From an uncultured Planctomycetota bacterium (GTDB taxonomy: Bacteria > Planctomycetota > Brocadiia > CAIUPP01), in NCBI GenBank assembly GCA_903901045.1, contig CAIUPP010000021.1, positions 104,491 to 168,490 on the forward strand: 64,000 nucleotides of DNA, given 5' to 3'. Positions 1,254 to 61,659 of the stretch are shown here, in pieces (within the stretch, counting starts at the first letter, position 1; each line of letters starts with the position of its first letter). The notes beneath the pieces were generated by a model. The model had not been told where the DNA came from and made no database searches. It worked only from the letters and a program-made list of their open reading frames with translations. A program made the translations under genes and the position numbers.

Positions 1254-1282
1254 TTGACAATGCTGTCATCGGATGATACTAT
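1254..1282 (+). promoter_or_regulatory. sigma70-like promoter TTGACA-17nt-TACTAT upstream of AraR-type regulator gene
   Basis: TTGACA at 1254-1259, a 17-nt spacer, then TACTAT at 1277-1282. It lies in an AT-rich island within a GC-rich genome. The predicted TSS (~1289) leaves a ~42-nt leader before the GTG at 1331. Confidence 0.55.
1255..1268 (+). promoter_or_regulatory. perfect palindrome TGACAATGCTGTCA overlapping the -35 element (candidate operator for autoregulation)
   Basis: TGACA-ATGC-TGTCA is a perfect 14-bp inverted repeat. GntR-family operators are typically short palindromes of this kind (GT-Nx-AC). Confidence 0.4.
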
Positions 1283-1288
1283 TTGCGT

Positions 1289-1314
1289 GTGACATGGTGA
1301 CACAGATAGTGACA
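1289..1314 (+). repeat. three direct GTGACA repeats in the predicted 5' leader (1289, 1297, 1309)
   Basis: GTGACA occurs three times with 8-12 nt spacing immediately downstream of the -10. The same hexamer recurs downstream of the paralogous promoter at 18417. Confidence 0.4.
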
Positions 1315-1330
1315 CGGAGACACGGCTACC

Positions 1331-2464
1331 GTGGCGACACTCCTTCAGAAGATACAGATCGACCCCCAATCGTCGGTGCCGAAGCATCTCCAGATACGGA
1401 ATGCGGTGGCCGCCGTCCTGCGCACACAGCAACTGCCGGCGGGCGCAAAGCTGGATTCCGTGCGCGAGGTGGCCGACCGCATCGGGGTCGGCTCCCGAAC
1501 AGTCGCGCGCGCTTACGATCTGCTTCGGCGAGAAGGGGTGATTGTGATTGAGCCGAGTTACGGCGCATTTGTGGCGGCTGGCTCGGAGGTCAAGACAGCC
1601 GTCGACGTATACCTGTGCGCTCATCCCAGCTACCTGGAGAGAAAGCATTGGCTGGCTTTCCAGCGCATACAGGGGGTCATGGCCGCCGCACAACGTCTTG
1701 GCGTCCAACTTCATCCCCTGACGGGGCCCGGGGCGGTCGAGGCGGATGAACTGTGCGGCCGGCGCTGTGCCGTGCTGGTCTTCGACATGGCGTACAGGGC
1801 CGACGGATTTGGACCGATTGTTGACCTCGCCCGGGAGCGTCATATTCCATGCTGCGTGGTCATGGGGGCGTGCGACGGGATGCCCGGCGTGGAAGAGCAT
1901 CGTGAAATGGGCTTCGAACAGGCCACGGAATATCTGCTGGGGCTTGGCCACAGGAATATCGCCTTGATCAACCTCGCTGCGCACAACGGCAACGCGCACG
2001 GCATGACCAGGGCATGGCAGAACCGGCAGGGTTATCTCGCCGCCCTGAAACGCTCCGGATATCCCATCCGCAGCGAGCTGTACGTCGAGGCATTGAACCC
2101 CGAAGACAACGAGATGTATCACACCGAGCGCGCGCTGGACTCGCTCCTCTCCCTTTCTCCGCGGCCGACCGCGATCCTCTGCAACAATGACGTGCGCGCG
2201 CTGGCGGTCATGAAGCTGCTGAACGCGCGCGGGCTCCGCATTCCCGAGGACATGTCGGTGGTCGGGTACGACAACCGGCGCGAATGCGAACGCGCAAATC
2301 CGCGCCTGACCAGCGTGGAAACGCAACTGGTTGAGCAGGGGGAGGCGGCGCTGCAGTTCGTTCTGGAGCAGGTCTGGGGCCGTGAGCCGAAGCCGCCCGC
2401 CGTGTTTCCCCGGCTCGTGCGCCGGGATTCCGTTGCGGCGGTTGGAGGGGCAGGGCTGGTTTGA
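1331..2464 (+). CDS. AraR-subfamily GntR transcriptional regulator (N-terminal GntR winged HTH + C-terminal LacI/PBP1-like sugar-binding domain)
   Basis: The N-terminus ([32 protein letters not shown]) is a GntR HTH. The C-terminal ~300 aa have the LacI/GalR periplasmic-binding-like pattern ([44 protein letters not shown]). GTG start. Confidence 0.8.
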
Positions 2465-2585
2465 AGCGAACCGCGCCGGGGCGTCGGCGCGATGTGAGGA
2501 GGTGATACGAAAGAGCGGTGGTTGTGATCGCAATGGGGGGGCGTCAGGCGTGTTCCTGAACCTTGTTCATGAGGAGGGCCGAACC

Positions 2586-3887
<1,302 letters not shown>

Positions 3888-3904
3888 GGGACTGGAAGGA
3901 ACCA

Positions 3905-3940
3905 GGGCAGCGCGACCAGGGAGCCGCGCTGCCCTTTTTC
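3905..3940 (+). terminator. rho-independent terminator GGGCAGCGCG-loop-CGCGCTGCCC followed by TTTTTC
   Basis: A perfect 10-bp GC stem, a 10-nt loop and a T-tract, located immediately after the DUF1559 gene stop at 3887. Confidence 0.85.
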
Positions 3941-3975
3941 TGCGCCCGCAAGTTCAACCAATCGGAGGAACGCTC

Positions 3976-6900
3976 ATGTCCTGTAAGTCGCTGGCCGTCC
4001 TGGGGGTCATTCTGGCGGCGTTCTGTATGGGCAGTATGGCGCGCGGGGCTGACGAAGGGCTGATCGCCAACTTCCCGTTGGGTGAGGGAACGGGAACGGT
4101 TCTCCACGACGCGACCGGCGGCGGCCTTGCCGGTACGATCCACAATGCGGAGTGGGTCAAATGGGGGAACGGCAGCGGCCTCAAGTTCGGCCGGACGGAC
4201 TCGTATGTGGAACTCGGCGCAGGGCTGAAGGAGAAGACCACGGGCGATATGACCCTTCTGGCCTGGGTGAAGCTGACCGCCTGGCCCTATCCCGACAACC
4301 AGACCAACTGGGTCATCGCCGATTGTGAGGAGTACCTGAAGTCCGGTTGGACATTGCGCGTGGCGGGGAACAACCAGCGCGTGTATTTTCGATGCAGCCA
4401 GGAGGGACGTTGCGAAGACGGGCAGGGGGGGATGCGCCTGGACAACAACGAGTCTTACCTGGTGACCCTCGTCAAGCAGGGCGGGACGGCGACGATTTAC
4501 CTGGATGGACTGCTGGACACCAAGTTCTCCGTGCAGGACCCCGCTCCGCCGAGCGCGCCGCTGCGCATCAGCGGAGGCGGCCAGTCCTTCAACGGGCTCA
4601 TCGGGAATTTCCGCCTGTACAACCGGGCGCTGTCGCAGGCGGAGGTGCTGGATCAGTACCGGCAGGGGGCGGCTGCGCACGGCAAGAAGGCCGTGGCCGC
4701 CGGCGCGCTGGGACTGAAGCCGTATCTCTGCTTCGACGAGGGATTCGCGCAGTTGGATGTGGACTACCGCGGCGTCATGCCGGCGGAGAAGGAAGACCGG
4801 GTTGTTGCGGAACTGCGGGAGGACGGTCAGCCGACGACCCTCCTCAAAGTGGACCCCGCGCTGCCCGCCTCCGGCTTCGGTGAATACCTGGTGCGCCTGG
4901 GGGAGTTGCAGCCGGGACGGTGTGAAATCCGCGTGACGGTGCGCAACCCGCGCGGCGACAAGGCCGTGGGGACGTATGCGTTCAGCTACCCGCTTCCCCC
5001 GGCGGTCGCTCCCGCGCCGCGCGAGCGGACCGTGGCGGCGCTGCCGAAGCCGCGCCCCGCGCCGCAGTTCGACCTGGCGCTGCGTCCGGGAGGAGGCCTG
5101 AGCCTGACGTGCGGGGGGCAGAGCTATTCCGTGGACTCCGACTTCTCCTACCCGCAGGGCGGGGAGAACGCGTTCTTCTGCGCCGCCGCGGCTCCGGCGG
5201 GCATGGAGCCGCGCTGGAGCGCCGTGACGCACAAGGTCAATGACAACACGTGGGAAGTGCGCGCCGAGGCGGGGACGTACCGCGTGGAGCGCCGCGTGGC
5301 GCGCGAGGCAAGCCGCGTGCTCGTCGACGACACATTTGTCAACAAGACCGCCGCGCCGCTGGGCGTCATCGTGAACCACCGCATCGGCACGCAAGGCCAC
5401 GAGTTCAAGCGGGCCTATCTGGCGGGTTATCCCACCGACGGGCAGAACACGCTTGGCGCGGACCAGACGGCGTCGCTCAAGACGAACCCCACGATCTTCC
5501 TGGAGAATAACGACCTGGGGGTGGGCCTCGTGGCGCTGGACGACGTGTTCATCGTGCAGTCCCAGGGCGCGCTGAACGCCGGCGGGGCGCGTCTCTATAC
5601 CAACAGTTTCGCGCTGGACGCCGGAGCTTCTTACACGCTGGAGTGGGCAATCTATCCCGACGCGGGCGGGTACTACGACTTCATCAACCAGGTGCGCCGC
5701 GACGAGGGGCGCAACTTCGTGACCGTGGATGGCGGGCTCGCGATCCTGCCCGTCGACGAGCAGCGCGACCGGCGGTGGGTGCCCACAAAGGAATATCTGA
5801 CCCTCCGCAACCTCCGCTATATCGACATCAACGGGCTGGACCACATCGCCGACGACCCGGAACTCACCATCGACGGCATCGACTTCCTCTGGTACCCGAA
5901 GGAGATGGCGCTGCTCAAGGAGCAGATCGCCGCATCGCACAAGGTCGATCCGCGGCTTCAGGTGATCTTCCACATCGCGCACAGCCTCATCACCACGAAC
6001 AAGCCCGCGGAAGTCTTTCCCGACTCGCGCGTGATGCTCCCCGACGGGAAGCAGGCCACCTACTGGTTGGGCAATGAGGGGAGTTACCTCAGCGAGCGGC
6101 GCAAGAAAGAGGGGTGGCACTGGTATATTTACTACCCGACGCTGGAGAACAGCTTCGGCAAGGAGATGATGCGCTCCGTGGATGTCATGGCGGACGAGTT
6201 GGGCTGCAACGGCGCGTTCATGGACGGGTTCAATTACGCCTACGGCTCCGAGGTCACGACCGACCGCTGGGATGGACACACGGCGCAGATCGACCCGCGC
6301 ACCAAGACCATCGTCCGCCCGCTCGGTTCTGTGTTCCTGCTGTCTCAGCCAACGCTCGTGGCCTTCGCCCGCAAATGGCGTGAGAAGGGGGGCATCGTGA
6401 TCTCCAACAACTCCATCGTCACGCGCACGCTCGGGCGCGAGTACTTCATCCACGAGCGCGAGATGCAGCACGGTCCCGATATGCACCTCGCCCCCACTCC
6501 CGTGACGCTGGGCGACGCGACGGCCATTCGCAATGGGCATCCGCTGGACTTCTATCGCGACGTGCTCGACAAGCTCGAATGGGGCAGTCTCTATTTCTAC
6601 TACGGCGAGTGGACGCTGACCTACCCCTCCGTCCCCGCCTTCATGTATCCTATTACCGTTCAGGAAATCGGCAACGGCCTGGTCAAGGGGAAAGAACGGC
6701 TGATCACCCGGCATAGCGGCGTGTACGGCTGGGAGGGAGACCGCGCCCTGCACCAGGCTTATCGCTTCGACGACCAGGGGCATCTGGCCCCGCACGAGTT
6801 CTTCACGACGGTGGATGGGCAATCCGTGCGCACGCAGGTGCAGTTGGACAGGGATGAAGTCGCCGTGATCCGCAGAATCCCCGTGAGCATCACATCCGCC

Positions 6901-7134
6901 GCGCCGGTGAACGTGATCGTCCAGCAATATGACGCGGGAGGGCTGGTCCTGTCGCTCAACGGCGTGGGCCATGTGCGCGTGACGGTGACCGACGGCGACT
7001 TCGCGGTCAAGCCCGGAGCGAAATTCATCTTGAAAACGAACGCCGAACAGACCCTCACTGCGCAGGCGGGGGGGCTGTCGTTCGATCTGGACTTGAACGG
7101 CGCGCGTGCCGTGCTTCTGGCCGCCGGGCACTGA
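3976..7134 (+). CDS. secreted LamG (concanavalin A-like lectin/glucanase) domain protein with large C-terminal putative glycoside-hydrolase region
   Basis: RBS GGAGG sits 7 nt upstream. A signal peptide (MSCKSLAVLGVILAAFCMGSMARGA) is followed by a Laminin_G_3-like domain ending LIGNFRLYNRALSQAEV. The N-terminal 240 aa are paralogous to those of 7167 and 17405. Confidence 0.8.
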   Translation: MSCKSLAVLGVILAAFCMGSMARGADEGLIANFPLGEGTGTVLHDATGGGLAGTIHNAEWVKWGNGSGLKFGRTDSYVELGAGLKEKTTGDMTLLAWVKLTAWPYPDNQTNWVIADCEEYLKSGWTLRVAGNNQRVYFRCSQEGRCEDGQGGMRLDNNESYLVTLVKQGGTATIYLDGLLDTKFSVQDPAPPSAPLRISGGGQSFNGLIGNFRLYNRALSQAEVLDQYRQGAAAHGKKAVAAGALGLKPYLCFDEGFAQLDVDYRGVMPAEKEDRVVAELREDGQPTTLLKVDPALPASGFGEYLVRLGELQPGRCEIRVTVRNPRGDKAVGTYAFSYPLPPAVAPAPRERTVAALPKPRPAPQFDLALRPGGGLSLTCGGQSYSVDSDFSYPQGGENAFFCAAAAPAGMEPRWSAVTHKVNDNTWEVRAEAGTYRVERRVAREASRVLVDDTFVNKTAAPLGVIVNHRIGTQGHEFKRAYLAGYPTDGQNTLGADQTASLKTNPTIFLENNDLGVGLVALDDVFIVQSQGALNAGGARLYTNSFALDAGASYTLEWAIYPDAGGYYDFINQVRRDEGRNFVTVDGGLAILPVDEQRDRRWVPTKEYLTLRNLRYIDINGLDHIADDPELTIDGIDFLWYPKEMALLKEQIAASHKVDPRLQVIFHIAHSLITTNKPAEVFPDSRVMLPDGKQATYWLGNEGSYLSERRKKEGWHWYIYYPTLENSFGKEMMRSVDVMADELGCNGAFMDGFNYAYGSEVTTDRWDGHTAQIDPRTKTIVRPLGSVFLLSQPTLVAFARKWREKGGIVISNNSIVTRTLGREYFIHEREMQHGPDMHLAPTPVTLGDATAIRNGHPLDFYRDVLDKLEWGSLYFYYGEWTLTYPSVPAFMYPITVQEIGNGLVKGKERLITRHSGVYGWEGDRALHQAYRFDDQGHLAPHEFFTTVDGQSVRTQVQLDRDEVAVIRRIPVSITSAAPVNVIVQQYDAGGLVLSLNGVGHVRVTVTDGDFAVKPGAKFILKTNAEQTLTAQAGGLSFDLDLNGARAVLLAAGH

Positions 7135-7166
7135 AAGCGCATAAACCAGGAATAGGAGAACTCTTC

Positions 7167-10100
7167 ATGTCTGCCAGGCTTTCTATCGTCTTGGGGCTCA
7201 TCCTGGGGATTTCTCTCGCGGGACCAGCCGCGCGCGGGGCCGAAGAGGGGCTGATCGCCCAATTCCCGCTGGACGAAGGAACGGGTGCGACGGTCCACGA
7301 CGCGGCCGGCGGCGGCATCGCCGGAACGCTCCACAACGCGGACTGGGTCAAATGGGGGAGCGCCAACGCGCTGAAGCTGCGCCGCACGGACTCCTGCGTG
7401 GAGATCGGCCAGGGACTCAAGGAGAAGATCACCGGCGACTTCACCCTCGCCGCCTGGCTGAAGCTGACCGCCGCGCCCTACCCCGACGTGGAAACCAATT
7501 GGGTGATCCTCAGTTGTGAAGCCTATGATGGCAAGCCTCTGCCGCAAAGCGGCTTCACTTTCAGGATCGCCGGCAACGAAGCAAAGCTGTATTTCAGGTC
7601 AAGCCAGGCGGGCGCATACCAGGACTCCCTCCTCGGCTGGCCGCTGGCGAACAACAAACCGTACATGGTGGGCATGGTCAAGAAGGGAGAGACTGCCAGG
7701 ATCTTTCTGAACGGCCTTGCGGGGCCGGAATTTCAGGTGAAGGACCCCGCCCCCGGTCCGGGGCCTCTGTTGATCGGCGGCGGAGGGCAGTCCCTCAACG
7801 GGCTCATCGGCGACGTGCGAGTCTACAACCGCGCCTTGTCGGAGGATGAAATGAAGGAACTCTACAAGCGGACCTCGGCCGACCGCGCCAACAGCGATAC
7901 GAGCACACGGCCCGGACCTGAGGCCAACCTCGCGCTTTCCGCCAACGGCTGCTGGATCATCGCCTCCTCCAACGGGAACTGGTCGGACAAGTACTGGAGC
8001 AACCTCATCGACGGAAACCCCGATACGTCCTGGGCGTCCTTTCAGCCGACGCAGGAGGAGTACCTGGAATTGAAGTGGGACTTCGCGATGGACGTCAACC
8101 GCGTCCGCGTCCTGGAGCGCGCCGACAGCCACGCCTCGGAAATGGAACTGCTGGCATGGGACCACGACCAGTGGAAGTCCGTCGCAAAGAAACAGCTCGC
8201 GGGGAAAGCGCCGGCCGGCCAGCCGGTCGAGCTTCAATTCCCCACCCTGCGCACCCTGCGGCTGCGGTTGGTCTGCCGCAACGACGCTCCGCGCCGGACG
8301 GCCCTCTGCGAGATCCAGGCCTTCGGCCCGGCCCAGCCCCTCCTGTACGTGGACAACGGCCCCGACTGGCGCGTCGGACGCTGGACTTATTTCCCCACGT
8401 CGCGCCGGGACCAGGTCGACACGTACTACCGGGCGCTCTCCGCCGGGAAGTCCGCCAGCCCTTATGAGGGCGCGGAGGAATCCCTCCTCATTGAGGAAGT
8501 GTCCATCGATCCGAAGAATCCGAAGCCGGGGCAGGACGTGACGCTCACGCTGAAACTGAAGCCGCTCGCGAAACTCTCCGACGACTACGCCCTCGTCGCG
8601 ACCATCGGCGAGCGCGAGAAGCTCTTCCAGTTCGCCAACTATTCCGTCGTTCGCGCCATTCTCTCCCCTGCCACGCCGCTCTCCCAGTGGCCGGCCGGAG
8701 AAACGCAGACGGTCCAAACGGAAATTCACCTCCCGGTGTGGGCGCCGGATGGCGCGTCGAATGTCATGCTCCACGGCATCAGTCCCGCCGGACGCCCGCC
8801 GCTCCGATTCGTGGACACGGTGGAACGGCCACTGGACGACGGCGTTGCGACCGTCCTGAACATCAAGCGCTTCGCCAAGCCGCCGAAGCCCGACACGAAG
8901 CCGCATACGGCGAAAATCGACTCCTCGAACGGAACCATCATCTCACTGGACGGCCGCAGGATTGCGCCGACCATCATTCCGATACTGAACCCGTCGTTCG
9001 AGCAATTCCACTATTACTCTCAGGGGGAGGGGGTCAAGATATTCGGTCTGGAATTCTATCCCTGGGCGATAAACGCGGGGGCTTTCCAGCAGCGAAACTT
9101 CGACTACCTCGCGCAACACGTCCGCAACGCCATGCGCGTCGCGCCGAACGCCTACGTGCTGGTCTTTGTCGACCTGCGCACCCGGCCCGACTGGCAGGCG
9201 GCGCACCCGGACAGCCTCATCACGTCCTATGATGGAAGGATCATGTCCGCCGAAAGCTTCTGCGCCAAGGCGTACCGCGACGAAGCGCTCAGCTATGTTT
9301 CCAACATGGTGACGTTCATCCAGAGCCAGCCCTGGGGCAACCGGGTGATCGGCTATCAGCTCGGGGTCGGCGCCGAGGGGATCATGGGCGATTACGGCAC
9401 CCGGAGCATCTCCGGCATCGGCGACTACAACCCCCAGGCCATCGAAGCGTTCCGGGAATTCGCGCGCCAACGGTATGGGAACGACCTCGCGCGGATGCGC
9501 GCCGCGTACGACGACCCGCAACTCACGTTCGAGACGATCTACCCCAGGCATGAGAAGATCATGGAGCCCGGCGCAGCCGGCGGATGCTTCCTGGACCCGC
9601 GCACGCAGCGCTTCACGAGCGACTACTACGAGTTCCTTTCCTCGCTGGTCCCCACCTTCACCGAGGAACTCGCCGCGACGATCAAGAAGCTGACGGACGG
9701 CCGCGTTCTCGTCGGCACGTACGGCGCTTACCTGCTCGAAGCGATCGGTGTCGAGGCCGGCCTGCACATGGCTAATCATTGTTACACCGATTACCTGATG
9801 CACGCGCCGGACCTCGATTTCTTCGCCAGCCCGCACAACTACCTTGATTCCGTGCGCCAGGCCGGCGGGCCGTACCGCCCCTATCAGGCCTACGCCTCCA
9901 TGCGGCTGAATGGAAAGCTGCACATGTCCGAATGCGACCAGCGCACCTTCCGCTGCGGCATGCACAACAGCTATACCAACCGCAGCCGCGAAGAGACGAC
10001 AGCCGTCCTGACGCGCGACCTGGGCGCCGGCCTGATGCATGGCACGGAGGGATGGCTGGCCGACTGGGCCGAAACGGAGTTTAAGGACCGCAGCATGTGC

Positions 10101-11033
10101 GAGCCGTTCTTTACGGACGATCAGATCTTGTCCCACGTCTCCCTGCTGGAGAAGCGGTATGGTGAGACCCTCGACCTGAAACGCGGCATCGACGCCGAAG
10201 TGGCGGTGTTCATCAGCGGGGCGAATGCGTTTCACATGGACAACGGCATCGAGAAGAACGCCCATGCCGTGACGAACTGCCTGAACCAGGTCATCTACTC
10301 CCTCATGAAGGCCGGAATGCCGCACGATGAACTGCTCCTGGAGGACGTCCTCAAGCCGGAAGTCCAGTCGGCGTACAAGTGCTACGTCTTCCTGAACTCC
10401 TTCTATATGACCGACGCGCAGGCGCAGGCGGTCGAGAAACTGAAGCGCGACGGCAAAACCCTGGTCTGGCTCTATGCCCCCGGTTACGTCCGCGATAGCG
10501 GGCTTTCGGCGAAGAACATCGAGGAGGTCACCGGGTTCAGCGTCGGGGTCGATCCCACGCAGTGGAAACTGGCTTACCGGTTAGCTGACAAGAACAGTCC
10601 CCTCGCGGCGGGGCTGGAAGAGAAGGAGTACCTAGGAGACGCGCGAACGGCCTCCCCGCGGTTCTACGTCACGACGCCCGACGCGACGGCGCTCGGAGTG
10701 TACTCGGACGGCAAGGTCGCCGTCGCGGTCAAGGACTTCGGCGCTTACAAGAGTTTCTACTCGACCGTGCCCGTGCTTCCGCTGCCCATGCTCAAGAACC
10801 TCCTTCGTTACGCAGGCTGCCACGCCTGGGTGAATGAGGATATCTACATGGACGCCACGCGGAATTTCCTGATGCTGACGAACACGTTTGACGCTCCCCG
10901 CAATATTCAGGTAAGCTTGCCCCGGAAATGCGACGTATCGGACCTTCTCACCGGCAAGGCCGTGGCCTCCGGCGCGAGACAGTTCAATATGCCCCTCGCC
11001 CCGGGCGAGGCTCGCATATTCAGGCTGAAATGA
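7167..11033 (+). CDS. secreted LamG + F5/8 type C (discoidin) domain protein with C-terminal putative glycoside hydrolase (TIM-barrel-like) region
   Basis: Signal peptide and LamG module (…LIGDVRVYNRALSEDEMKELY). A discoidin-like segment follows (NLIDGNPDTSWASFQPT…VNRVRVLERA), then a ~900-aa C-terminal region. Confidence 0.8.
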   Translation: MSARLSIVLGLILGISLAGPAARGAEEGLIAQFPLDEGTGATVHDAAGGGIAGTLHNADWVKWGSANALKLRRTDSCVEIGQGLKEKITGDFTLAAWLKLTAAPYPDVETNWVILSCEAYDGKPLPQSGFTFRIAGNEAKLYFRSSQAGAYQDSLLGWPLANNKPYMVGMVKKGETARIFLNGLAGPEFQVKDPAPGPGPLLIGGGGQSLNGLIGDVRVYNRALSEDEMKELYKRTSADRANSDTSTRPGPEANLALSANGCWIIASSNGNWSDKYWSNLIDGNPDTSWASFQPTQEEYLELKWDFAMDVNRVRVLERADSHASEMELLAWDHDQWKSVAKKQLAGKAPAGQPVELQFPTLRTLRLRLVCRNDAPRRTALCEIQAFGPAQPLLYVDNGPDWRVGRWTYFPTSRRDQVDTYYRALSAGKSASPYEGAEESLLIEEVSIDPKNPKPGQDVTLTLKLKPLAKLSDDYALVATIGEREKLFQFANYSVVRAILSPATPLSQWPAGETQTVQTEIHLPVWAPDGASNVMLHGISPAGRPPLRFVDTVERPLDDGVATVLNIKRFAKPPKPDTKPHTAKIDSSNGTIISLDGRRIAPTIIPILNPSFEQFHYYSQGEGVKIFGLEFYPWAINAGAFQQRNFDYLAQHVRNAMRVAPNAYVLVFVDLRTRPDWQAAHPDSLITSYDGRIMSAESFCAKAYRDEALSYVSNMVTFIQSQPWGNRVIGYQLGVGAEGIMGDYGTRSISGIGDYNPQAIEAFREFARQRYGNDLARMRAAYDDPQLTFETIYPRHEKIMEPGAAGGCFLDPRTQRFTSDYYEFLSSLVPTFTEELAATIKKLTDGRVLVGTYGAYLLEAIGVEAGLHMANHCYTDYLMHAPDLDFFASPHNYLDSVRQAGGPYRPYQAYASMRLNGKLHMSECDQRTFRCGMHNSYTNRSREETTAVLTRDLGAGLMHGTEGWLADWAETEFKDRSMCEPFFTDDQILSHVSLLEKRYGETLDLKRGIDAEVAVFISGANAFHMDNGIEKNAHAVTNCLNQVIYSLMKAGMPHDELLLEDVLKPEVQSAYKCYVFLNSFYMTDAQAQAVEKLKRDGKTLVWLYAPGYVRDSGLSAKNIEEVTGFSVGVDPTQWKLAYRLADKNSPLAAGLEEKEYLGDARTASPRFYVTTPDATALGVYSDGKVAVAVKDFGAYKSFYSTVPVLPLPMLKNLLRYAGCHAWVNEDIYMDATRNFLMLTNTFDAPRNIQVSLPRKCDVSDLLTGKAVASGARQFNMPLAPGEARIFRLK

Positions 11034-11039
11034 GCGACC

Positions 11040-14000
11040 ATGAGCCAGGCGAAACCAATCCATCAAGTCCGTTTTGACGATACTTTTAACGGCTGGTCGG
11101 AGGCTCTGCCCCTCGGCAACGGGCATTTCGGCGCAATGGGCTTCTTGGACCGCGAAGAGGGTTTGGTCTTCACGTTCAACCATTACGATGTGTACTACCG
11201 CTCGAACTTCCGCCCGGAGCAATTGGCCGAGGCGAACCCCTACCGTTATCCCAGGAGCACAGCGCCCGACCGCGCGGAGATGAAGCGCCGCGCGCTGGAG
11301 GCGCACGCGGACCCGAACCACCCCGGGCATGGCAACTACAACGTTTGCTACGACCCGGGGATGGCGTCCCGCTGGGGCGCGCGGCGTGAGGGCAACATTA
11401 TGGCGATCGCCGGCTCGCTGCGGTTGATTCCGCGCCGCGGGCTGTTCGATTCGGCGCCCTATTCCACGGCGCTGGAGATCGAGAATGCTCTCTTCCGCTT
11501 CTCGGCCTCGGGCGTCGAGTCGCGCGCCTTTGTCGCCCGGGACCCGGATGTCTTCGTGATCAACGTGTCGCAGGCCAAAGCCGCGGCATTCGACTCCCTT
11601 GCGCTCTCAGTCCCGGTCTCTCGCATGCGCCCCGACCTCACTTCCTCCTCCGGTTCGGAGCAGGGCGATCTCTTCTTCATCAAGAGCGGCTTCTTCCCGC
11701 AAGGTGGCGGGAAAGGAAAGCCCCCCCATGAATACCTGATTGCCGCCAAACTCGTGGGCGCGAAGGGGGCGCTGGAAAAGCATGCCGGCGGGAATGAACT
11801 GCGGGTTCGGCTGCGGAAGCAATCGAAGGCGTTCACCGTGCTGGTCGCCGTGATCCCGCCCGAGGAAGGGCCGGACTTCGTCGCGGCCGCGCGGCGAAAG
11901 CTGGAAACCGCGGCGCGAGGGCTGAAGGAACTGGAGGCGTCTCATCAGGCGCACTGGCGGGACTTCTTCGGCAAGTCGCGCGTCACCCTGCCGGATCCGA
12001 TGCTGGAAACGCTCTGGCATCTCCACCTCTACTCCCTGGCCTGCTGCAGCGGGGAGGGGGCGCGCCTGTTTGGGGAAGCTTGCGGGCTCAACGGCCTCTG
12101 GGACATCAAGGGACCCACCCAATGGGGCAGCAGTTGGTACTGGGACGTCAACATCGAGCAGGCGTTCTGGCCGGTGTTTGCCAGCAACCACCTGGAACTG
12201 GCGCGGCCGTTTCACAAGGGGATGATGGCGTGGGCGGAGGGGGCGCGCGACCATGCCCGGCACTTCCACAAGCTCGACGGCATCGCGCCGGACTACCCTT
12301 TCACCTATTACATGTCCATGTGGGCCTGGTGCGCGCAGTACTTCTGGTGGCACTACACGCATTCGATGGACAAGCAGTTCCTCCGGGAGACCGCCTTCCC
12401 GCTGTTCAAGGAAATCCTGCGGTTCTACGAGTTGTACGCCGAGCGCGATCCCAAGACCGGCCATCTCGTGATCTTCCCCGACGTGGCGCCCGAGCAGGGC
12501 CCGATGACGCGCAACTCGATGAGCACGATCAGTTGCCTCAAATTCCTTCTCAAGATGGGGATTCGCTCGGGAGAGATTCTCGACGTCGAGCCTGTCCTGC
12601 GCCGGAAATGGAAGACGATGCTCAGTCTATGCGGGGAGTATGCCTGGGGCGAGTCCCGCCGTTTCGGGAAGCATTACAAGGATTCCGAATGGGCCGAAGG
12701 GCTGTTGTTTCTCGCGCACAGCGGGATCGTGAAGCCGATCTTCCCCATTCGCGAGATGACCAAGCGCAGCCCCCGGCGCGTGCGGGAGATGGCCCTGGGC
12801 ACGCTGCGCTATGCCGACGCCCTGCAAACCTACGGCACGCACAACCTCTGGCCGGCCGCCGCCGCCGCAGTTCTGGGCTTGGGCGATGAAGCGGCCCGCA
12901 TGCTCTACGACCGGGGCATCTCGCTGGTCATGCGCGCCAACGGCATGTTCGCCGAGGAGACGGACCGCTGGTTTCAGAACTGTCTGACCAACTGCGCTCC
13001 CGTGTACAGCCCGCCGCTCATCGAGGGGGGGAGCACCGTCGTCGCGACGATCAACGAGATGCTGCTGCAAAGCTATGACGGTTTGATTGAAATCTTCCCG
13101 GCCATCCCGGTCGGCGCGCCCACGGTGCGCTACCATGAGGACCGCGTGAACCCGCCGCGCCTCGCCCCCGCGCCGGTGAAGAAGTGGGAGGAAGCCTCTT
13201 TCGAGAACCTCCTGGCCGAGGGCGCGTTTGAAGTTTCCGCTTGGTTGCGCGGCGGAAAGACCACCGCCGTGCGCATCCGAAGCCTCCAAGGCGGGCGGGT
13301 GCGCCTCGTGAATCCGTTCGGCGCGCGCGCAGTGACTCTGAAATGCGATGGGACGAAAGTCGCTCGCCGGCTCATCGGCAAGGTCCTCGCCTTCGCCACT
13401 CAGGCCGGAAAGAGTTACGAACTCTCCGCCGGGGAAGGGATTCCGCCCGCGGCGCGGGGACGTTCTTTGCCCACCCCGCTGGTCGCCGAGGCGTTCACCC
13501 GGCGCCGCGTCTTCCTGGGCAAGGACCAGCACACCGATTTCCAGCGCGCGCTGGATGGCGCGCTGCTGGATTTCCATGCCGGGCACGTCCCGCAGTCGAA
13601 AATTACCGTCTACAAATTCGACTTCACGAATCCGAAACTTTCCAAGGACTATTTCAAAGTCGTTGCCTGGCAGTGGCACGTCTGCGGCAAGCAGGGGGGC
13701 GCGTTCCTTCCCGTCTCGGCCGACAGCCGGTACACCCCCGACGTCGGGCGCGGCTGGGCCAGAACGGATAAGTTGATGTACGCGGACAGGGGCGCGCCGG
13801 ATGAACTCCGGCGCGACTTCGTCGGCTCCACGGCTCCCGCTGAATTCCTCGTCGACCTGCGGGCCGGGCAATATCAGGTCCTGCTCGTTTCCGGTGACGC
13901 AAAGGGCGCGAGCGCCACGCGCGTGAGCCTGGCGGACGGCGCCACCTGGGAGTCCGGGACGCTTGCGGCCGGGAAGTTCGCCGTGGGAACGCTGCTGCTG

Positions 14001-14102
14001 AATCAGCGGCGGGACGGCACAGCCGCCTTCCGGATTCTTCCCGGCGCGCCCCGGACGCGTTGGACGCTCTCAGCGCTCATCATCAACCAGCTTCTAGGCT
14101 AG
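11040..14102 (+). CDS. six-hairpin glycoside hydrolase, GH95-like (alpha-L-fucosidase/alpha-L-galactosidase family)
   Basis: The N-terminal WSEALPLGNGHFGAMGF matches the GH95 N-terminal (Glyco_hyd_65N_2-type) motif. WYWDVNIEQAFWPVFASNHLELARPF resembles the GH95 catalytic NINxQMNYWP…NLxE…P signature. Confidence 0.7.
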   Translation: MSQAKPIHQVRFDDTFNGWSEALPLGNGHFGAMGFLDREEGLVFTFNHYDVYYRSNFRPEQLAEANPYRYPRSTAPDRAEMKRRALEAHADPNHPGHGNYNVCYDPGMASRWGARREGNIMAIAGSLRLIPRRGLFDSAPYSTALEIENALFRFSASGVESRAFVARDPDVFVINVSQAKAAAFDSLALSVPVSRMRPDLTSSSGSEQGDLFFIKSGFFPQGGGKGKPPHEYLIAAKLVGAKGALEKHAGGNELRVRLRKQSKAFTVLVAVIPPEEGPDFVAAARRKLETAARGLKELEASHQAHWRDFFGKSRVTLPDPMLETLWHLHLYSLACCSGEGARLFGEACGLNGLWDIKGPTQWGSSWYWDVNIEQAFWPVFASNHLELARPFHKGMMAWAEGARDHARHFHKLDGIAPDYPFTYYMSMWAWCAQYFWWHYTHSMDKQFLRETAFPLFKEILRFYELYAERDPKTGHLVIFPDVAPEQGPMTRNSMSTISCLKFLLKMGIRSGEILDVEPVLRRKWKTMLSLCGEYAWGESRRFGKHYKDSEWAEGLLFLAHSGIVKPIFPIREMTKRSPRRVREMALGTLRYADALQTYGTHNLWPAAAAAVLGLGDEAARMLYDRGISLVMRANGMFAEETDRWFQNCLTNCAPVYSPPLIEGGSTVVATINEMLLQSYDGLIEIFPAIPVGAPTVRYHEDRVNPPRLAPAPVKKWEEASFENLLAEGAFEVSAWLRGGKTTAVRIRSLQGGRVRLVNPFGARAVTLKCDGTKVARRLIGKVLAFATQAGKSYELSAGEGIPPAARGRSLPTPLVAEAFTRRRVFLGKDQHTDFQRALDGALLDFHAGHVPQSKITVYKFDFTNPKLSKDYFKVVAWQWHVCGKQGGAFLPVSADSRYTPDVGRGWARTDKLMYADRGAPDELRRDFVGSTAPAEFLVDLRAGQYQVLLVSGDAKGASATRVSLADGATWESGTLAAGKFAVGTLLLNQRRDGTAAFRILPGAPRTRWTLSALIINQLLG

Positions 14103-14116: not shown

Positions 14117-14308
14117 ATGACCGCGCCGCGCACGACCGGCTGCCTGAAGAAGCTCGACCGGATGAACAAGGCGTTGCGACATGAAGAGCCCGACCGCGTG
14201 CCGATCAGTGACTTCTTCTGGGGCGGGTTCGTCGAGCGCTGGCGGAAGGAGTTGGGGCTGCCGTCGGACGCCTCTTCCGATCTCATTACGACCTCGACTG
14301 GATCGTGA
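14117..14308 (+). pseudogene. N-terminal fragment of a URO-D family gene (frameshifted relative to 14305..15279)
   Basis: MTAPRTTGCLKKLDRMNKALRHEEPDRVPISDFFWGGFVERW carries the URO-D/MtaA N-terminal PDRVP motif. Its frame ends at 14308 while the rest of the domain continues in another frame (…YDLDWIVTVHNMD). Confidence 0.45.
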
Positions 14309-15279
14309 CCGTCCACAACATGGACCCGCACATCCGCTCCTTTCAGACGCTCAAGGAGGACGCGGAGGAGGTCATCGTCAAGACCGGCTTTGAGATCTCG
14401 CTGCGCAAACGCTTCGACATGCCAATGCCGGAGCAGATGAGCTGGGAGACGGACTCCATCGAGAAGCTCGAAGCGTTCGCCTTCGACGACCCGGCCGACC
14501 GTCGGCGCTTCTTCAGCGCCGGGGATAATCAGATCGCCGGAGTGGGGGATGGCTTCACGCGCAACAGCCCCCCCTGGGTGGAGAGCGTTCGCGGACTGCA
14601 CAAGGATTTCCCGGTCTATGGAAGCATCATCGAGGCCAGCGAATTCCTCACGCGCGCCGTGGGCCAGATGAACACCCTGATGTGGTTCGGCGAGTATCCC
14701 GAGCGCATGGGGGCGCAGGTCGAGCGGATCAACCGCTTCTACTGCGAGTGCGCCGAGGCCGCCATCCGTGCGGCAGGGGGCCTCCTCGACGGCTTCGTCA
14801 TCTGGGGCGATGTGGCCTATCGCAACAGCCTCTTCATTTCTCCCGGATACTGGCGGCGTTACTTCAAGCCGGGGGTCAAGGCGCTGATTGACCTGTGCCA
14901 CCGGAACGGCCTGCCGGTCATCTACCACGGCTGCGGCAACGTCAAAGCCATCCTGCCGGACTTCATCGAAATCGGCCTGGACGCCTACAACCCCCTGGAG
15001 GCGAAAGCCGGCCTGGACGTGGTGGAGTTGCGAAAGGAGTACGGCCATCAACTCGCCTTCTGCGGCAACAACGACATCACCGTCTGGGAGGGAGGGGACC
15101 CCGTGAAGATACGGCGCGAAACCCTCCGCAAGTTGCGCGCTGGAACGGGGGGTGGCTACATCGTACAATCCGATCATTCCGTGTCGAGCGCCGTCTCGGG
15201 AAAGAGCTACGACCTGGTGGTGAAACTCGTGCGCGAATACGGGAAATACCCGCTGAACCTTGACGCCCTCTCGGACTGA
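14305..15279 (+). CDS. uroporphyrinogen decarboxylase (URO-D/MtaA) family protein, C-terminal major part (apparent frameshift near 14270-14300)
   Basis: URO-D family C-terminal region (GFVIWGDVAYRNSLFISPGYWRRYFKPGVKALIDLCH…IYHGCGNV…GGGYIVQSDHSV). The upstream ORF carries the missing N-terminus. Confidence 0.6.
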   Translation: MTVHNMDPHIRSFQTLKEDAEEVIVKTGFEISLRKRFDMPMPEQMSWETDSIEKLEAFAFDDPADRRRFFSAGDNQIAGVGDGFTRNSPPWVESVRGLHKDFPVYGSIIEASEFLTRAVGQMNTLMWFGEYPERMGAQVERINRFYCECAEAAIRAAGGLLDGFVIWGDVAYRNSLFISPGYWRRYFKPGVKALIDLCHRNGLPVIYHGCGNVKAILPDFIEIGLDAYNPLEAKAGLDVVELRKEYGHQLAFCGNNDITVWEGGDPVKIRRETLRKLRAGTGGGYIVQSDHSVSSAVSGKSYDLVVKLVREYGKYPLNLDALSD

Positions 15280-15290
15280 AAGGAACAACC

Positions 15291-15632
15291 ATGCGGCGAT
15301 TCGGGTGGGTCATCGGCGTGAACGCCGGCAAGGTCGAGGAATACAAGCGCCTCCATGCCGCCGTCTGGCCGGACGTCCTCAAAATGATCAAGCAGTGCCA
15401 CATTCAGAATTACTCCATCTACCTTCGGCAGCTCGACGACGGGCAATATTACCTCTTCAGCTACCTGGAGTACGTGGGCGAGGACTTCACGGCTGATATG
15501 GCGAAAATGGCCGCCGACCCGACGACCCAGAAATGGTGGGACGCCTGCAAGCCCTGCCAGCGACCCCTGACCACCCGAAAGAGCCCGCAGGAATGGTGGT
15601 CGGACCTCGAAGAGGTTTTCCACCTCGATTAG
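15291..15632 (+). CDS. rhaM: L-rhamnose mutarotase
   Basis: 113 aa with close similarity to RhaM/YiiL: VWPDVLKMIKQCHIQNYSIYL, QKWWDACKPCQ, EVFHLD. RBS AAGGAA upstream. Confidence 0.9.
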   Translation: MRRFGWVIGVNAGKVEEYKRLHAAVWPDVLKMIKQCHIQNYSIYLRQLDDGQYYLFSYLEYVGEDFTADMAKMAADPTTQKWWDACKPCQRPLTTRKSPQEWWSDLEEVFHLD

Positions 15633-15646
15633 CCCTCGGAGGAAAC

Positions 15647-16702: not shown

Positions 16703-16740
16703 TTCATTGAAGACCTTACGGTCAGGAAAGGTATTGCCCG

Positions 16741-17355: not shown

Positions 17356-17404
17356 CGCGTCGCCGTTTGTGCTCGCGTGAATTCAGCCAGGAGGAGGAAC
17401 GCTC

Positions 17405-18370: not shown

Positions 18371-18399
18371 TTGACAAGCCGCCAAACGCGGGATATAAT
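18371..18399 (+). promoter_or_regulatory. canonical sigma70-like promoter TTGACA-17nt-TATAAT
   Basis: Perfect -35 and -10 hexamers with a 17-nt spacer in a markedly AT-rich island. GTGACA lies at 18417-18422 downstream, as at the first regulator promoter. Confidence 0.65.
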
Positions 18400-59066: not shown

Positions 59067-59155
59067 TGAAAACATCCTCCAAGTGCATAGGGGTGGCGCG
59101 GTTATTCGGCTCCCGGGGACGGGGGCCGTTCCAGCTTCGCGCGTGCGCCGCCTCA

Positions 59156-60448
59156 TCACTGCGCGTTCACGTCAACTCCACTTGCGACGTCAAACTGATG
59201 CCAGACAAGGACGTTGGACTTGTAGTTGTCACCGTCGCTGACGGGGTTGGCGAATTTCCAGTCGAAAATTCCGCAGTATTGCAGAGAACCCGCCCACTCC
59301 TGGTTCACGGCCTTGTTGGCTACGTCACTCTTGGATACCCACCACATGATCTGGAGCTGGGGATCGCCGTACCACCGGGCGCTCCAGTCGCCGTAGAGCA
59401 CATTGTATCCGTCGCCATGGCCGAAAAGGGCGTTGCCGGGATAGGGGCCGCCGGGCGTTTCCACATTACTCACCTTGTTTCCCCAGTCGGACCCCTTGGA
59501 GAAACTGTCGGTCACCAGCGCCCTGCTGCCGAGTTGCTTCTGTGTCTTGAAGATCGGCTCGCCCGGGAAGACAACCTTGACCGGGCTGACGTACCGCACT
59601 TGAATGCCCGCGGCCCGCTTGGCGGGCGTTTCGATCTTGTAGGCGTTGCTGATGGCAACGTCCGCCGGGACGTTGCGATAGTTGTAGTTGCCCTGGACCA
59701 CGAGATAATACATGCTCATGCCGGAGGCCAGATCAAACTTATGAGTGGCCTGTCTGGTGCTGCCCCAGGTCCACGTCCCGGACATCGCCGACTTCGCGTT
59801 GAATGGCCCCGCGCGCTTCAACTGCTGCAACGAGTATACGATACCGTCGGCGTCGGTGAAGGCCGTGTTGGCGCGAGGGCCCCGGAGCCCTGGCATGTTG
59901 CCGCCTGCTGAAGGACAGAAGAACATCCGCGTGTCATCCATGTAGCCGCAGCTTGCCAGGTAGCCCAGGCCGACCGGCGCGGCATTGAGCTGGCCGTTCG
60001 CCCTGACCGTGATGCCGGCGCTGTTGGTTCCTGCAAGGGTGGTGTCGGTGCAGCCCATGAAGAGGGTCTGAAACGCCCAGGTTGCCAGGCTATACCCGCT
60101 GACCCCGGCATCTACGTTGCCCACCCGGACTGACTGGCCGGTAGAGTCCGTGTACAGGCTGGCATCCGTCGCTGTCCAGTTGGCGGTGCCGCTTGCCGGA
60201 GTCGCATTCCCGCCGCCGTAGGCGCCCCAGGAGGGGAAGTACTGGCCGTAGTCGCTGCAGTAACTCTCCAGCGCCTTGCTCATCTGGTTGAACTGGCCCA
60301 GGCAGGCCGAACGCCGCGCCTTCTCCCTGGCCGCCGCAAGCGCCGGCAGAAGCATTCCGGCCAGAATGGCAATGATGGCGATAACGACTAGCAGCTCGAT
60401 GAGCGTGAACGCGCCCAGGATGGTCAACCGTCTACAAAAGCTCAACAT
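59156..60448 (-). CDS. DUF1559 / H-X9-DG-like prepilin-type protein (paralog 3)
   Basis: RBS GAGGAGGAAG 5 nt upstream. N-terminus [33 protein letters not shown] and C-terminus [28 protein letters not shown]. Confidence 0.85.
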
Positions 60449-60493
60449 GACTTCCTCCTCTCTCCGTCAAAAAGCGCGCCTGTTCGGATGCCC

Positions 60494-61597
60494 TCATGCA
60501 CCCGGAACCGTTGCGGCCGTGGCCGCGTGCGCGCAGGTATTACCCGGCATCAACTCTGGGGCGACCAGGACGCGCCCCGGGTTCCGCCCCGTGGCGGCAA
60601 TCCCAAGCAGCTCCTTGACCGCCCGGTGTGCGATGGCTTGCCACGCGTTGTCCACGCGGCTGATCACGCGGTTTTCCATCTGAGCATGCTCGGCGCTGCA
60701 CAAAGCAAGCACGGAGCAATCCTGCGGCACGCGGATGCCCGCGCGTTCGAGCGCCGATACGGCCGGGCGGCCCATGGCCCCCGGGCCGGCAAACACGGCC
60801 GTCGGCCACCCCTCGGGAGCGCCCGAGAAGAATTCCGGAATCAAGTCCGCAATGGCCTTTTCACAGGCTTCATGCGCCAAACCGTGTAAGGGGTGTGAGC
60901 GCACGGTCATATCTTCCATGCCCGTCAGCGGCCACGGCTCCAGCGCCGCGCGCCCCTCGTTCCAGAAGATGCGCGGGAGAAGCAGGACGCGCCGATGCCC
61001 CAGCCCGTAGACATAACGCATCCCGGTCTCATAGGCCGCGCGCAGATCGCGGTCCACGAAGTTCGGCATGCCGACGTCGTAATAGATGGCCACCGAAGGG
61101 GCCCGTGCCGTGAGGATGCTGCTGACCCAGCGCAGCAGCGGGGAGGAAGCGCGCTCGACAAAATGGAATAGAAAGCCGACGCGCTTGTTGAGGAACTTCT
61201 GCGGATCGTCCCGTTCTGTCGCCGTGATGAACAGGAGTCCATGTTCGCTGCAAGCGCGCTTGGTTCCAGCCATAATATCCATCAGCGTGCCCTGCTGGCG
61301 CTCCGCAGTGGCTTCCAACTGTGTAGCAAGGTTGGATTCCTCCGTCACGAGCACAATGGCGTCGAGCGGGCAGTCGTTGGCGGGGAACGTGCCCACCCCG
61401 TGAAGGATGCGGACGCGGCCGTTGGACGCAAGGTGCCGCACAGCGCGGTGGACAGTCATGGGGGCGACTTGATGGGTTCCGGCGAGATCGCGGATCGAGG
61501 GAATAGCCTGTTCGGGGGGGTATTCGCCCGAAAGGATTCGGGCTTCAATATCCTCGGCAAGCCGTTTGAATAGCTGCTGGTCTTTCCGGCCCTTCAT
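60494..61597 (-). CDS. AraR-subfamily GntR regulator (GntR HTH + PBP-like domain), third copy
   Basis: HTH IPSIRDLAGTHQVAPMTVHRAVRHLASNGRV and C-terminal PBP-like domain. Start set at MKGRK, because the longer ORF start lies upstream of the promoter's -35 hexamer. Confidence 0.7.
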   Translation of the reverse strand: MKGRKDQQLFKRLAEDIEARILSGEYPPEQAIPSIRDLAGTHQVAPMTVHRAVRHLASNGRVRILHGVGTFPANDCPLDAIVLVTEESNLATQLEATAERQQGTLMDIMAGTKRACSEHGLLFITATERDDPQKFLNKRVGFLFHFVERASSPLLRWVSSILTARAPSVAIYYDVGMPNFVDRDLRAAYETGMRYVYGLGHRRVLLLPRIFWNEGRAALEPWPLTGMEDMTVRSHPLHGLAHEACEKAIADLIPEFFSGAPEGWPTAVFAGPGAMGRPAVSALERAGIRVPQDCSVLALCSAEHAQMENRVISRVDNAWQAIAHRAVKELLGIAATGRNPGRVLVAPELMPGNTCAHAATAATVPGA

Positions 61598-61629
61598 GCC
61601 AACCTCGCATAAGGTACACTTGCAACGTA

Positions 61630-61659
61630 CAGTGTATAACAGTATTCTATGTTTGTCAA
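61630..61659 (-). promoter_or_regulatory. sigma70-like promoter on minus strand: TTGACA-17nt-TACACT, with TACACT/AGTGTA inverted repeat over the -10/TSS
   Basis: On the minus strand it reads cccTTGACAaacatagaatactgttaTACACTgtacgttgcaaGTGTAcc (coordinates ±2 nt). Confidence 0.45.

Follow-up and report, generated by a model that had tools for sequence, protein, structure and literature searches.

The window analysed here (the whole 64,000-nucleotide stretch of contig CAIUPP010000021.1 from an uncultured Planctomycetota bacterium) is densely coding, with a G+C content of 62–70%, and carries three modules in each of which a regulator of AraR-type architecture is followed directly by a gene for a large DUF1559 protein with a type IV pilin-like N-terminus (hereafter, pilin-like protein) and then by genes for glycan-related proteins, several of them exported. 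The gene layout is based on Pfam scans of the ~47 gene-sized open reading frames (ORFs) of the window. The genes of the three modules are listed below, with reg1–3 and pil1–3 denoting the regulators and the pilin-like genes or their products.

1331..2464, + strand: regulator 1 (reg1), GntR winged helix-turn-helix (wHTH) plus Peripla_BP_3, the AraR architecture (PF13377, 4.2e-32; PF00392, 1.2e-8)
2586..3887, + strand: pilin-like protein 1 (pil1), 433 amino acids (aa), prepilin motif SA/FTLIELL (the slash marks the cleavage site), DUF1559 N-terminal region, H-X9-DW C-terminal hairpin
3976..14102, + strand: block of glycan-active genes of module 1, with successive spacers of 88, 32 and 6 bp, made up of the next three entries
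3976-7134, + strand: LamG protein with signal peptide
7167-11033, + strand: LamG+F5/8C+GH42-like protein with signal peptide
11040-14102, + strand: GH95 protein without signal peptide
14305..18136, + strand: tail of module 1, encoding a pair of URO-D-like proteins, a GDSL-like esterase and a small LamG protein that carries a signal peptide (Pfam, signal-peptide check)
18433..19644, + strand: regulator 2 (reg2), GntR wHTH plus Peripla_BP_3 (Pfam; matches to AraR structures 3tb6 and 4egy)
19697..21130, + strand: pilin-like protein 2 (pil2), 477 aa
21466..36549, + strand: downstream block of module 2, comprising unassigned proteins of 275 aa and 930 aa, a beta-helix protein, a CBM4_9-like protein, an unassigned protein, two GFO/IDH/MocA proteins, two URO-D-like proteins and an unassigned protein of 433 aa
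25065-28190, + strand: beta-helix protein of module 2 with signal peptide
28187-29296, + strand: CBM4_9-like protein of module 2 with signal peptide
60494..61666 (longest ORF), − strand: regulator 3 (reg3), GntR wHTH plus Peripla_BP_3 (Pfam)
59156..60448, − strand: pilin-like protein 3 (pil3), 430 aa, the stop codon overlapping the start of the next gene by 4 nucleotides
56586-59159, − strand: beta-helix protein of module 3 with signal peptide
54389-56542, − strand: weakly GHL10-like protein, 717 aa
53485-54291, − strand: creatininase-family protein
52401-53756, − strand: weakly URO-D-like protein

Regulators that combine a GntR helix-turn-helix with a LacI-type sensor occur exactly three times in the window, as do genes with a prepilin motif and a DUF1559 match, and a six-frame motif scan returns exactly three FTLIELL N-termini in the 64 kb, each directly 3′ of a regulator of the GntR/periplasmic-binding-protein (PBP) type. 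The pilin-like gene follows its regulator on the same strand in 3/3 modules, with spacers of 121, 52 and 45 bp in modules 1, 2 and 3, respectively, an arrangement for which we estimate a chance of ~1e-5 under a random order of the ~47 genes. An earlier note on this DNA, made from the sequence alone, had described three copies of a module of an AraR-type regulator, a DUF1559 protein and secreted carbohydrate-active enzymes (CAZymes); all six regulator and DUF1559 genes are indeed in place, and each pair shares a strand. The third element of that description holds in part. Sec-type signal peptides are found in the three LamG proteins, the two beta-helix proteins and the CBM4_9-like protein, and are absent from the GH95, URO-D-like and GFO/IDH/MocA proteins; in module 2, moreover, the gene for the 275-aa protein, which has no signal peptide, separates the pilin-like gene from that of the first exported protein. 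The DNA separating the modules encodes a cluster of cytoplasmic sugar enzymes headed by DeoR (36516-43564), an AraC regulator and a cluster of oxidoreductases headed by TetR. The DeoR, AraC and TetR clusters contain neither a pilin-like gene nor a signal-peptide protein, and the pilin-like genes are confined to the three clusters of the window that encode signal-peptide proteins. Among the ~47 window genes, Pfam detects no sugar transporter (ABC, MFS, SSS, TonB-dependent or SusC/D) in the three modules or the catabolic clusters, and the SusC and SusD families are found neither in the window nor in the related loci L002 and L165–L170 (loci of other genomes are given L numbers here). The sole transporter-like gene of the window encodes an EamA-family protein (62899-63792).

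The AraR-type architecture is borne out in all three regulators, each of which contains a GntR wHTH (PF00392) and a Peripla_BP_3 domain (PF13377), with E-values of 4e-32, 4e-32 and 3.5e-14. In addition, reg2 matches both halves of Bacillus subtilis AraR in the PDB (C-terminal domain 3tb6, 1e-14; DNA-binding domain 4egy, 4.7e-6). The regulators are considerably diverged, reg1 and reg2 being 39% identical and reg3 only ~21% identical to either. The database gene call for reg2 starts at M16, nucleotide 18478 (P0126, 388 aa), and the true start of reg3 probably lies at ATG 61597, which is preceded by GAGG, because the promoter-like site of module 3 falls within the longest reg3 ORF. The promoter-like sites and candidate operators are as follows.

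1254..1282, + strand: module 1 promoter-like site, TTGACA-17-TACTAT, TG-extended, no other + strand site being found in 1000-4200; distance to the reg1 start 49 bp
18371..18399, + strand: module 2 promoter-like site, TTGACA-17-TATAAT, 12/12 consensus
61631..61659, − strand: module 3 promoter-like site, TTGACA-17-TACACT, falling within the longest ORF of reg3
1289..1328, + strand: GTGACA direct repeats, located 3′ of the −10 element and 5′ of the reg1 start codon, a candidate operator
61615..61636, − strand: inverted repeat TACACT-N10-AGTGTA overlapping the −10 element of module 3, a candidate operator

Each module thus has one strong sigma-70-like promoter directly 5′ of its regulator, against a background in shuffled sequence of ~1 such site per 3–4.5 kb stretch scanned, and the end coordinates of the feature delimited in the earlier note (1254 and 61659) coincide with the −35 hexamers before regulators 1 and 3. 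No promoter-like or terminator-like site lies between regulator and pilin-like gene in any of the three modules, and the spacers contain no known RNA elements or tRNAs. The repeats differ from module to module, no operator motif common to the three promoters being found. These features suggest that each module is an autoregulated, sugar-inducible operon in which regulator and pilin-like gene would be co-transcribed; by analogy with AraR, the regulators are likely to be autoregulated repressors with operators near the promoter.

The three pilin-like proteins are 430–477 aa in length, with a mutual identity of 36–38%. Their pilin-like N-terminus, proposed on first inspection, is supported by Pfam N_methyl (PF07963; 22.4–23.6 bits against a cut-off of 21.2) and by TIGR02532 (22.5–23.6 bits against 16.3) in all three, each of which also presents the traits of a class III signal, namely a short leader, the cleavage motif, Phe at +1, Glu at +5 and a hydrophobic helix of ~20 residues. 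The best NCBIfam match is GspG (TIGR01710), the scores of 33.9–38.6 bits being well short of the equivalog cut-off of 88.85 and the alignment covering only model positions 2–65 of 134. Likewise, the matches to DUF1559/SBP_bac_10 (PF07596; 30.1, 33.9 and 26.8 bits against a cut-off of 23.3) are restricted to profile positions 2–37, 2–50 and 2–55 of 268 and leave the body of the profile unmatched. The H-X9-DG domain model TIGR04294 gives no match to the window copies at E ≤ 0.01; these end in an H-X9-DW motif, most homologues have H-X9-DG, and JGI labels many of the homologues as H-X9-DG proteins. The C-terminal 361 aa of pil1, searched against 1.84 billion proteins, recover no more than 1,286 cluster representatives. 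We therefore read the window proteins as a diverged, lineage-restricted branch of the DUF1559/H-X9-DG superfamily. Close homologues number >4,000 at E < 1e-10, with many paralogues on single large contigs (contigs of 0.4–1.5 Mb recur), and 67–74 copies of DUF1559/H-X9-DG pilin-like proteins are reported per genome in the Planctomycetes–Verrucomicrobia–Chlamydiae (PVC) group (PMC13274419, PMC2754498, PMC10632474). As the earlier note held, the literature assigns no function to DUF1559: it is mentioned only in passing, with nothing relevant for ‘H-X9-DG’, and one paper calls it a solute-binding protein family (PMC2754498), in keeping with the Pfam name SBP_bac_10.

The N-terminal 34 residues are identical in the three paralogues, and yet 19/34 codons differ synonymously. 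Recent gene conversion as the cause of the identical N-termini is ruled out by these synonymous differences, which indicate that the N-terminal helix is kept by purifying selection. An AlphaFold2 (AF2) model of pil1 built on 109 homologues (predicted local distance difference test score, pLDDT, 78; predicted template-modelling score, pTM, 0.84) features an alpha-1 helix of 63 residues together with a small antiparallel sheet, the last hairpin of which is the H-X9-D motif. Conserved, confidently predicted scaffold blocks alternate with indel-rich loops of low confidence, and block conservation correlates with pLDDT (rho 0.80). A fold search with this model yields weak matches, in which the pilin core alone is matched, and a profile search of PDB sequences returns pilins and GspG via the N-terminal helix only. 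No lectin, carbohydrate-binding module (CBM), other carbohydrate-binding or two-lobed solute-binding (PBP) fold is detectable in the AF2 model, so that the search for a carbohydrate-binding fold proposed in the earlier note comes out negative. The model suggests for the pilin-like protein an enlarged type IV pilin fold in which a conserved scaffold would carry hypervariable loops.

The association between regulator and pilin-like gene recurs in relatives. A metagenome scan seeded on the family-specific pilin C-terminus gives 80 loci, in which 54 members have at least 1.3 kb of upstream sequence and can be evaluated. With adjacency taken to mean a same-strand GntR/PBP regulator no more than 400 bp upstream, and with counts that are approximate since the detector is a four-sequence hidden Markov model run on stop-to-stop fragments, such a regulator is found 6–247 bp upstream of 20/54 members (37%). 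Compared with a background of ~2% regulators per gene in the same loci, this amounts to a 20-fold enrichment (binomial p = 2e-20), providing strong evidence that the link between regulators and DUF1559 genes inferred from three modules is not random. Other upstream genes include ROK (three), LacI (one) and XRE-cupin (one) regulators and several further pilin copies. Once the ROK, LacI and XRE cases are included, 46% of the members are regulator-adjacent; depending on this choice, 54–63% have no adjoining regulator. The link extends to glycan proteins, in that glycan-related families are enriched among the direct downstream neighbours of the 54 members, led by DUF4838 (9), CBM9 (7), LamG (5), PcRGLX lyase (4), GH123_N (3) and beta-helix (3) proteins. 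In four homologous loci chosen solely for their long contigs (L002, L167, L168 and L169), a GntR/PBP regulator is followed by 1–3 pilin-like genes in 4/4 cases, and then by DUF4838/CBM9, LamG/CBM9, a PQQ/malectin-domain protein (L168), GH4 or sulfatase genes. Tandem arrays of 2–3 pilins are seen in L167, L169 and L032, and in L165 the pilin takes second position, after a GH123-like gene.

The association is also apparent from the regulator side. In a sample collected by regulator homology, which is unbiased as to the pilin and includes the window's own regulator (n = 7), a pilin-like gene directly follows 5/7 regulators (two in L170, one each in L171 and L172, and the window's own). The L170 locus (249-7884; GCA_964618425.1, CAZUAO010000108.1) contains two mini-modules back to back, in the order GntR/PBP regulator, pilin-like protein (280 aa), DUF4838, followed by GntR/PBP regulator, pilin-like protein (258 aa), GFO/IDH/MocA, the pilins being of a short type. 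As a background sample, a contig scan seeded on the N-terminal motif gives ~125 pilin-like ORFs, mostly short and mostly from Verrucomicrobia and Lentisphaerota. In this sample, adjacency is observed in 11/28 loci labelled Lentisphaerota or Victivallales and in one Planctomycetota metagenome-assembled genome (MAG; L032, a regulator with three tandem pilins), and is absent from every locus labelled Verrucomicrobia. Among cultured organisms, Victivallis vadensis DSM 14823 encodes a regulator, a pilin, a GH42-like protein, a second pilin and a GH42+CBM9 protein in a row (NZ_QEKH01000020.1, 12670-29128). The arrangement therefore persists across lineages whose proteins are 30–40% identical. No description of a module of regulator, pilin and exported glycan protein, of its statistics or of its lineage distribution was found in the literature. 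What is new here is a systematic module of AraR-type regulator, pilin-like protein and exported glycan protein, resembling a polysaccharide utilization locus (PUL) without SusC/D; the protein family and the regulator type were known.

Several other features of the window are recorded here. The URO-D-like (PF01208) genes, five clear (14305-15279, 15533-16702, 31594-32727, 34101-35153 and 50409-51599) and one weak (52401-53756, − strand), are scattered through the glycan modules and also occur beside beta-helix proteins and pilins in related loci (e.g. L163 4580-5575). No corrinoid protein is seen, and the idea that they modify sugars, for example by demethylation or decarboxylation, is speculative. 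In module 1, the three LamG proteins (3976-7134, 7167-11033 and 17405-18136) have a near-identical signal peptide and N-terminal LamG region, with the common stretch ARGA[D/E]EGLIA[N/Q]FPL[G/D]EG[T/I]G, and differ in their C-terminal parts, which suggests recent domain duplication or shuffling inside the module. The 36516-43564 cluster encodes DeoR, a class-III aminotransferase, a DeoC-type aldolase, an amidohydrolase_2 protein, an AraA-like isomerase and an FGGY kinase, and is syntenic with a distant relative (L002 15769-21305). Its aminotransferase is unusually conserved, with 91% identity to a relative and ~75% identity to proteins of MAGs labelled Lentisphaerae, Kiritimatiellia and Phycisphaeraceae, which by itself places the window at the level of the PVC group, and the cluster is possibly a conserved catabolic pathway for amino- or deoxy-sugars. 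Finally, a large fusion protein (46439-49261) combines a DHO_dh/DPD-like TIM barrel, Fer4_20, a Pyr_redox_2 flavoprotein and 4Fe-4S domains; its gene follows that of the TetR regulator and precedes GFO and URO-D-like genes.

The reading to which we give an even chance of being right is that the pilin-like protein is an operon-specific accessory subunit of a shared machine of the T2SS (type II secretion system) or T4P (type IV pilus) kind, serving the envelope step of that operon's glycan pathway. In this scheme, a repressor of AraR architecture would sense a sugar product, leading to de-repression of the whole unit, the first structural gene of which encodes the large (430–480 aa) pilin-like protein. 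The class III (prepilin) signal would be cleaved at A/FTLIE by a prepilin peptidase, whereupon the invariant N-terminal helix would dock into a T2SS/T4P-type machine encoded elsewhere in the genome, with the protein acting as a minor or tip subunit whose pilin scaffold displays the hypervariable loops. Processing, assembly into the machine and function are all deduced from sequence; docking is supported by the identity of the 34 N-terminal residues while the remainder of the proteins is only 36–38% identical. As to the step served, export or surface retention/display of the co-encoded Sec-exported enzymes is slightly favoured over glycan capture or import, as a tentative choice. Export is favoured because of the GspG-like N-terminus and because a diderm without a type IX secretion system must move many folded enzymes across the outer membrane. 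The same direction is indicated by the pseudopilin of Verruconatronum alginivorum considered below and by the up-regulation of the T2SS on fucoidan in a planctomycete (PMC11685898).

A number of observations weigh against an accessory subunit of a shared machine. Neither the window nor any of the flanks fetched contains a gene for T2SS/T4P machinery, so that the N-terminal motif alone connects the family to a secretion or pilus machine. The head of 430–480 aa is 3× the size of filament-forming pilins, and the residue at −1 is Ala, not Gly, in all three pilin-like genes (positions 2640, 19724 and 60412). Across 16 aligned sequences this Ala is invariant; in the alignment of 109 sequences it is the consensus residue, outside the invariant and ≥90% columns, and the regulator-linked pilin-like gene of L171 has the canonical Gly. 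Ala would be a conservative variant of the prepilin peptidase site. In L002 and in the second module of L170 the pilin has no obviously exported enzyme adjoining. One of the seven regulators, a 67%-identical paralogue of reg2 from the same sample as the window and the same lineage (L163), heads a beta-helix/URO-D module without a pilin. A ‘fixed’ pairing, one per unit, as the earlier note put it, is hence too strict, given the 37% adjacency, the arrays of 2–3 pilins, the second position in L165 and the missing pilin in L163. Nor is tight co-evolution evident. Across pairs, how similar the pilins are shows no correlation with how similar their regulators are (Spearman −0.14, Mantel p = 0.93); on one contig, two pilins align with 334 bits and their regulators with 32, and within the window reg3 is an outlier (21%) and pil3 is not. 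The similarity of pilins is related to the downstream enzyme family at p = 0.009 over all pairs and at p = 0.076 for pairs below 50% identity (pairs being non-independent), so that the signal fades without close orthologues, strict one-to-one co-evolution with a cargo family is not seen, and the substrate specificity claimed for each copy is not evident. Co-duplication of regulator–pilin pairs is ruled out by the uncorrelated similarities, which imply that the arrangement was either assembled anew or kept while its partners changed, and this argues for selection on the regulator–pilin arrangement itself.

Capture or import of the glycan, which we regard as doubtful, would have the head bind the cognate glycan and a retractile pilus or pseudopilus pull the polymer to the surface or via a secretin into the periplasm, giving PVC bacteria without SusC/D a form of ‘selfish’ uptake analogous to DNA uptake by competence pili. 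The complete absence of transporter genes from all three modules speaks for it, as do L002 and L170, in which a pilin occurs with no clearly exported enzyme adjoining, and the hypervariable loops on a conserved scaffold could supply ligand diversity; weak coupling to the enzyme family also harms capture less than it harms a cargo adaptor. Moreover, selfish uptake and pilus- or crateriform-mediated binding have been reported for Planctomycetota (PMC11131199), and the same superphylum offers a precedent in the pilus genes (MUL2) needed for mucin import in Akkermansia and in a type IV-like pilus proposed for fucoidan attachment (PMC13174399, PMC12418764). However, the MUL2 pilin belongs to a different, archaeal-type family, a retraction ATPase or secretin is not known for the window organism, the model reveals no lectin, CBM or solute-binding fold, and the conserved aromatic and acidic residues are common to all paralogues and not paralogue-specific. 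A wider form of this idea, in which operon-specific, head-variable pilins replace SusC/D throughout the PVC lineage and Lentisphaerota by programming a shared retractile T2SS/T4P-type machine for glycan capture into the periplasm, we consider unlikely. Less likely still is that the prepilin-type helix serves as an export or anchor signal only, and that the protein binds or chaperones oligosaccharides in the periplasm or at the surface in the manner of a bindosome. A head of this size and an Ala at −1 are unusual for polymerising pilins, the sugar-binding proteins of the bindosome carry class III signal peptides (PMC3047682), and both the name SBP_bac_10 and the one paper that treats the family as solute-binding (PMC2754498) point in this direction; against this, only the pilin core is matched in place of a periplasmic-binding-protein fold, no ABC or other transporter is co-encoded, and Glu5 and the whole alpha-1 helix are absolutely conserved among the paralogues, as expected for contact with an assembly machinery and not for a simple anchor.

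That there is no functional coupling, the family being merely very abundant (tens to hundreds of copies per genome) in genomes rich in glycan clusters or its members being duplicative passengers that land at the 5′ ends of operons, appears very improbable. Many paralogues per genome (67–74 copies in the other PVC genomes), the 54–63% of members without an adjoining regulator and a pilin phylogeny decoupled from its neighbours would fit such an account. It would have to be reconciled with a 20-fold enrichment at one position and strand, with an association that holds from the regulator side too and is kept across lineages with 30–40% identical proteins, with the translational overlap of pil3 and the next gene, and with the absence of pilin genes from the cytoplasmic-enzyme clusters of the window; in addition, no transposase or repeat is associated with the pilin-like genes. 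The tight adjacency, the pilin being the first gene after the regulator, may also be taken to indicate a signalling partner, i.e. a membrane-anchored pilin-like protein that senses extracellular glycan and modulates the adjacent regulator. We find this scarcely credible, as the regulator is cytoplasmic with its own LacI-type small-molecule sensor, cleavage would leave the pilin-like protein without a cytoplasmic domain, regulators and pilins show no covariation, and pilins are also encoded behind ROK, LacI and XRE regulators or behind further pilins.

Planctomycetota, Verrucomicrobiota, Lentisphaerota and relatives play a major part in breaking down recalcitrant glycans of the sea, soil and gut, and to our knowledge they are without SusC/D machinery. 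The DUF1559/H-X9-DG pilin-like proteins are among their largest paralogue families, and the operon grammar described here (a sugar-sensing repressor, a pilin-like gene and exported glycan proteins) gives the family a concrete, testable context, in which the inducing conditions of each pilin paralogue are predicted by its module. Cultured carriers exist in Victivallis vadensis DSM 14823 and, as a related case, V. alginivorum. If the pilins are cargo or glycan adaptors of a shared machine, the modules would represent a PVC counterpart of the PUL paradigm, and if capture by a shared machine were to apply, it would provide a mechanism for ‘selfish’ uptake in PVC bacteria together with a function for the DUF1559/H-X9-DG expansion.

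Several known systems share individual traits with the modules. The T2SS pseudopilins (GspG/PulG and the minor GspH–K) have the same short basic leader, FTLIELL with Glu5, hydrophobic alpha-1 helix and association with exported hydrolases, and their minor-pseudopilin sets resemble the 2–3 tandem copies of the window family. Unlike them, the window family is 3× larger, has Ala at −1, matches over the first ~60 residues only and far below the GspG cut-off, and is scattered as many paralogues in catabolic operons with no gsp operon or machinery nearby. A precedent among PVC bacteria is V. alginivorum, in which a pulG-like pseudopilin with 67 paralogues lies in an alginate-induced operon, growth on alginate up-regulates a pseudopilin and export by the T2SS has been suggested (PMC13274419, 2026). 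As is proposed for the window, a pilin-like gene there forms part of an operon for polysaccharide degradation that its substrate induces, although that operon includes a transporter and belongs to a different phylum, the gene is mentioned in passing without a regulator–pilin pairing, and its product is probably of the short type. In the modular or minor type IV pilins PilB/PilC of Streptococcus sanguinis and ComP of Neisseria, the pilin scaffold is likewise enlarged by extra structure with a binding function, a concept described in bioRxiv 10.1101/2021.01.27.428410; these proteins have recognisable modules (vWA, lectin) and genes in pil loci, whereas in the window pilins no domain is recognisable in the extra ~270 residues, which form loops, and their genes belong to catabolic operons. 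The Sulfolobus bindosome (Bas system; PMC3047682) provides a pilin-type signal peptide on sugar-acquisition proteins and a type IV pilus-like assembly, but it is archaeal, and its canonical ABC-transporter binding proteins are encoded with transporters, in contrast to the window, where there is neither a solute-binding fold nor a transporter. Akkermansia MUL2 (Amuc_1099-1102; cited in PMC13174399 and PMC12418764) is a PVC case in which pilus genes are required to bring a glycan, mucin, into the cell; it is a single dedicated locus with an archaeal-type pilin and PilM, without operon-embedded paralogues or a regulator link. B. subtilis AraR (GntR family, AraR subfamily) has the two-domain architecture of the window regulators, a likeness drawn at the level of architecture and not of orthology or an arabinose ligand, and one that applies to regulators only 21–39% identical among themselves. 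Finally, the SusC/SusD PULs of Bacteroidota also combine a regulator, surface glycan-handling proteins and CAZymes in a substrate-inducible unit present many times per genome, whereas the window modules have no SusC/TonB-dependent transporter or SusD, employ an AraR-type regulator in place of a hybrid two-component system (HTCS), extracytoplasmic function (ECF) or SusR regulator, and hold a pilin-like gene in the position beside the regulator.

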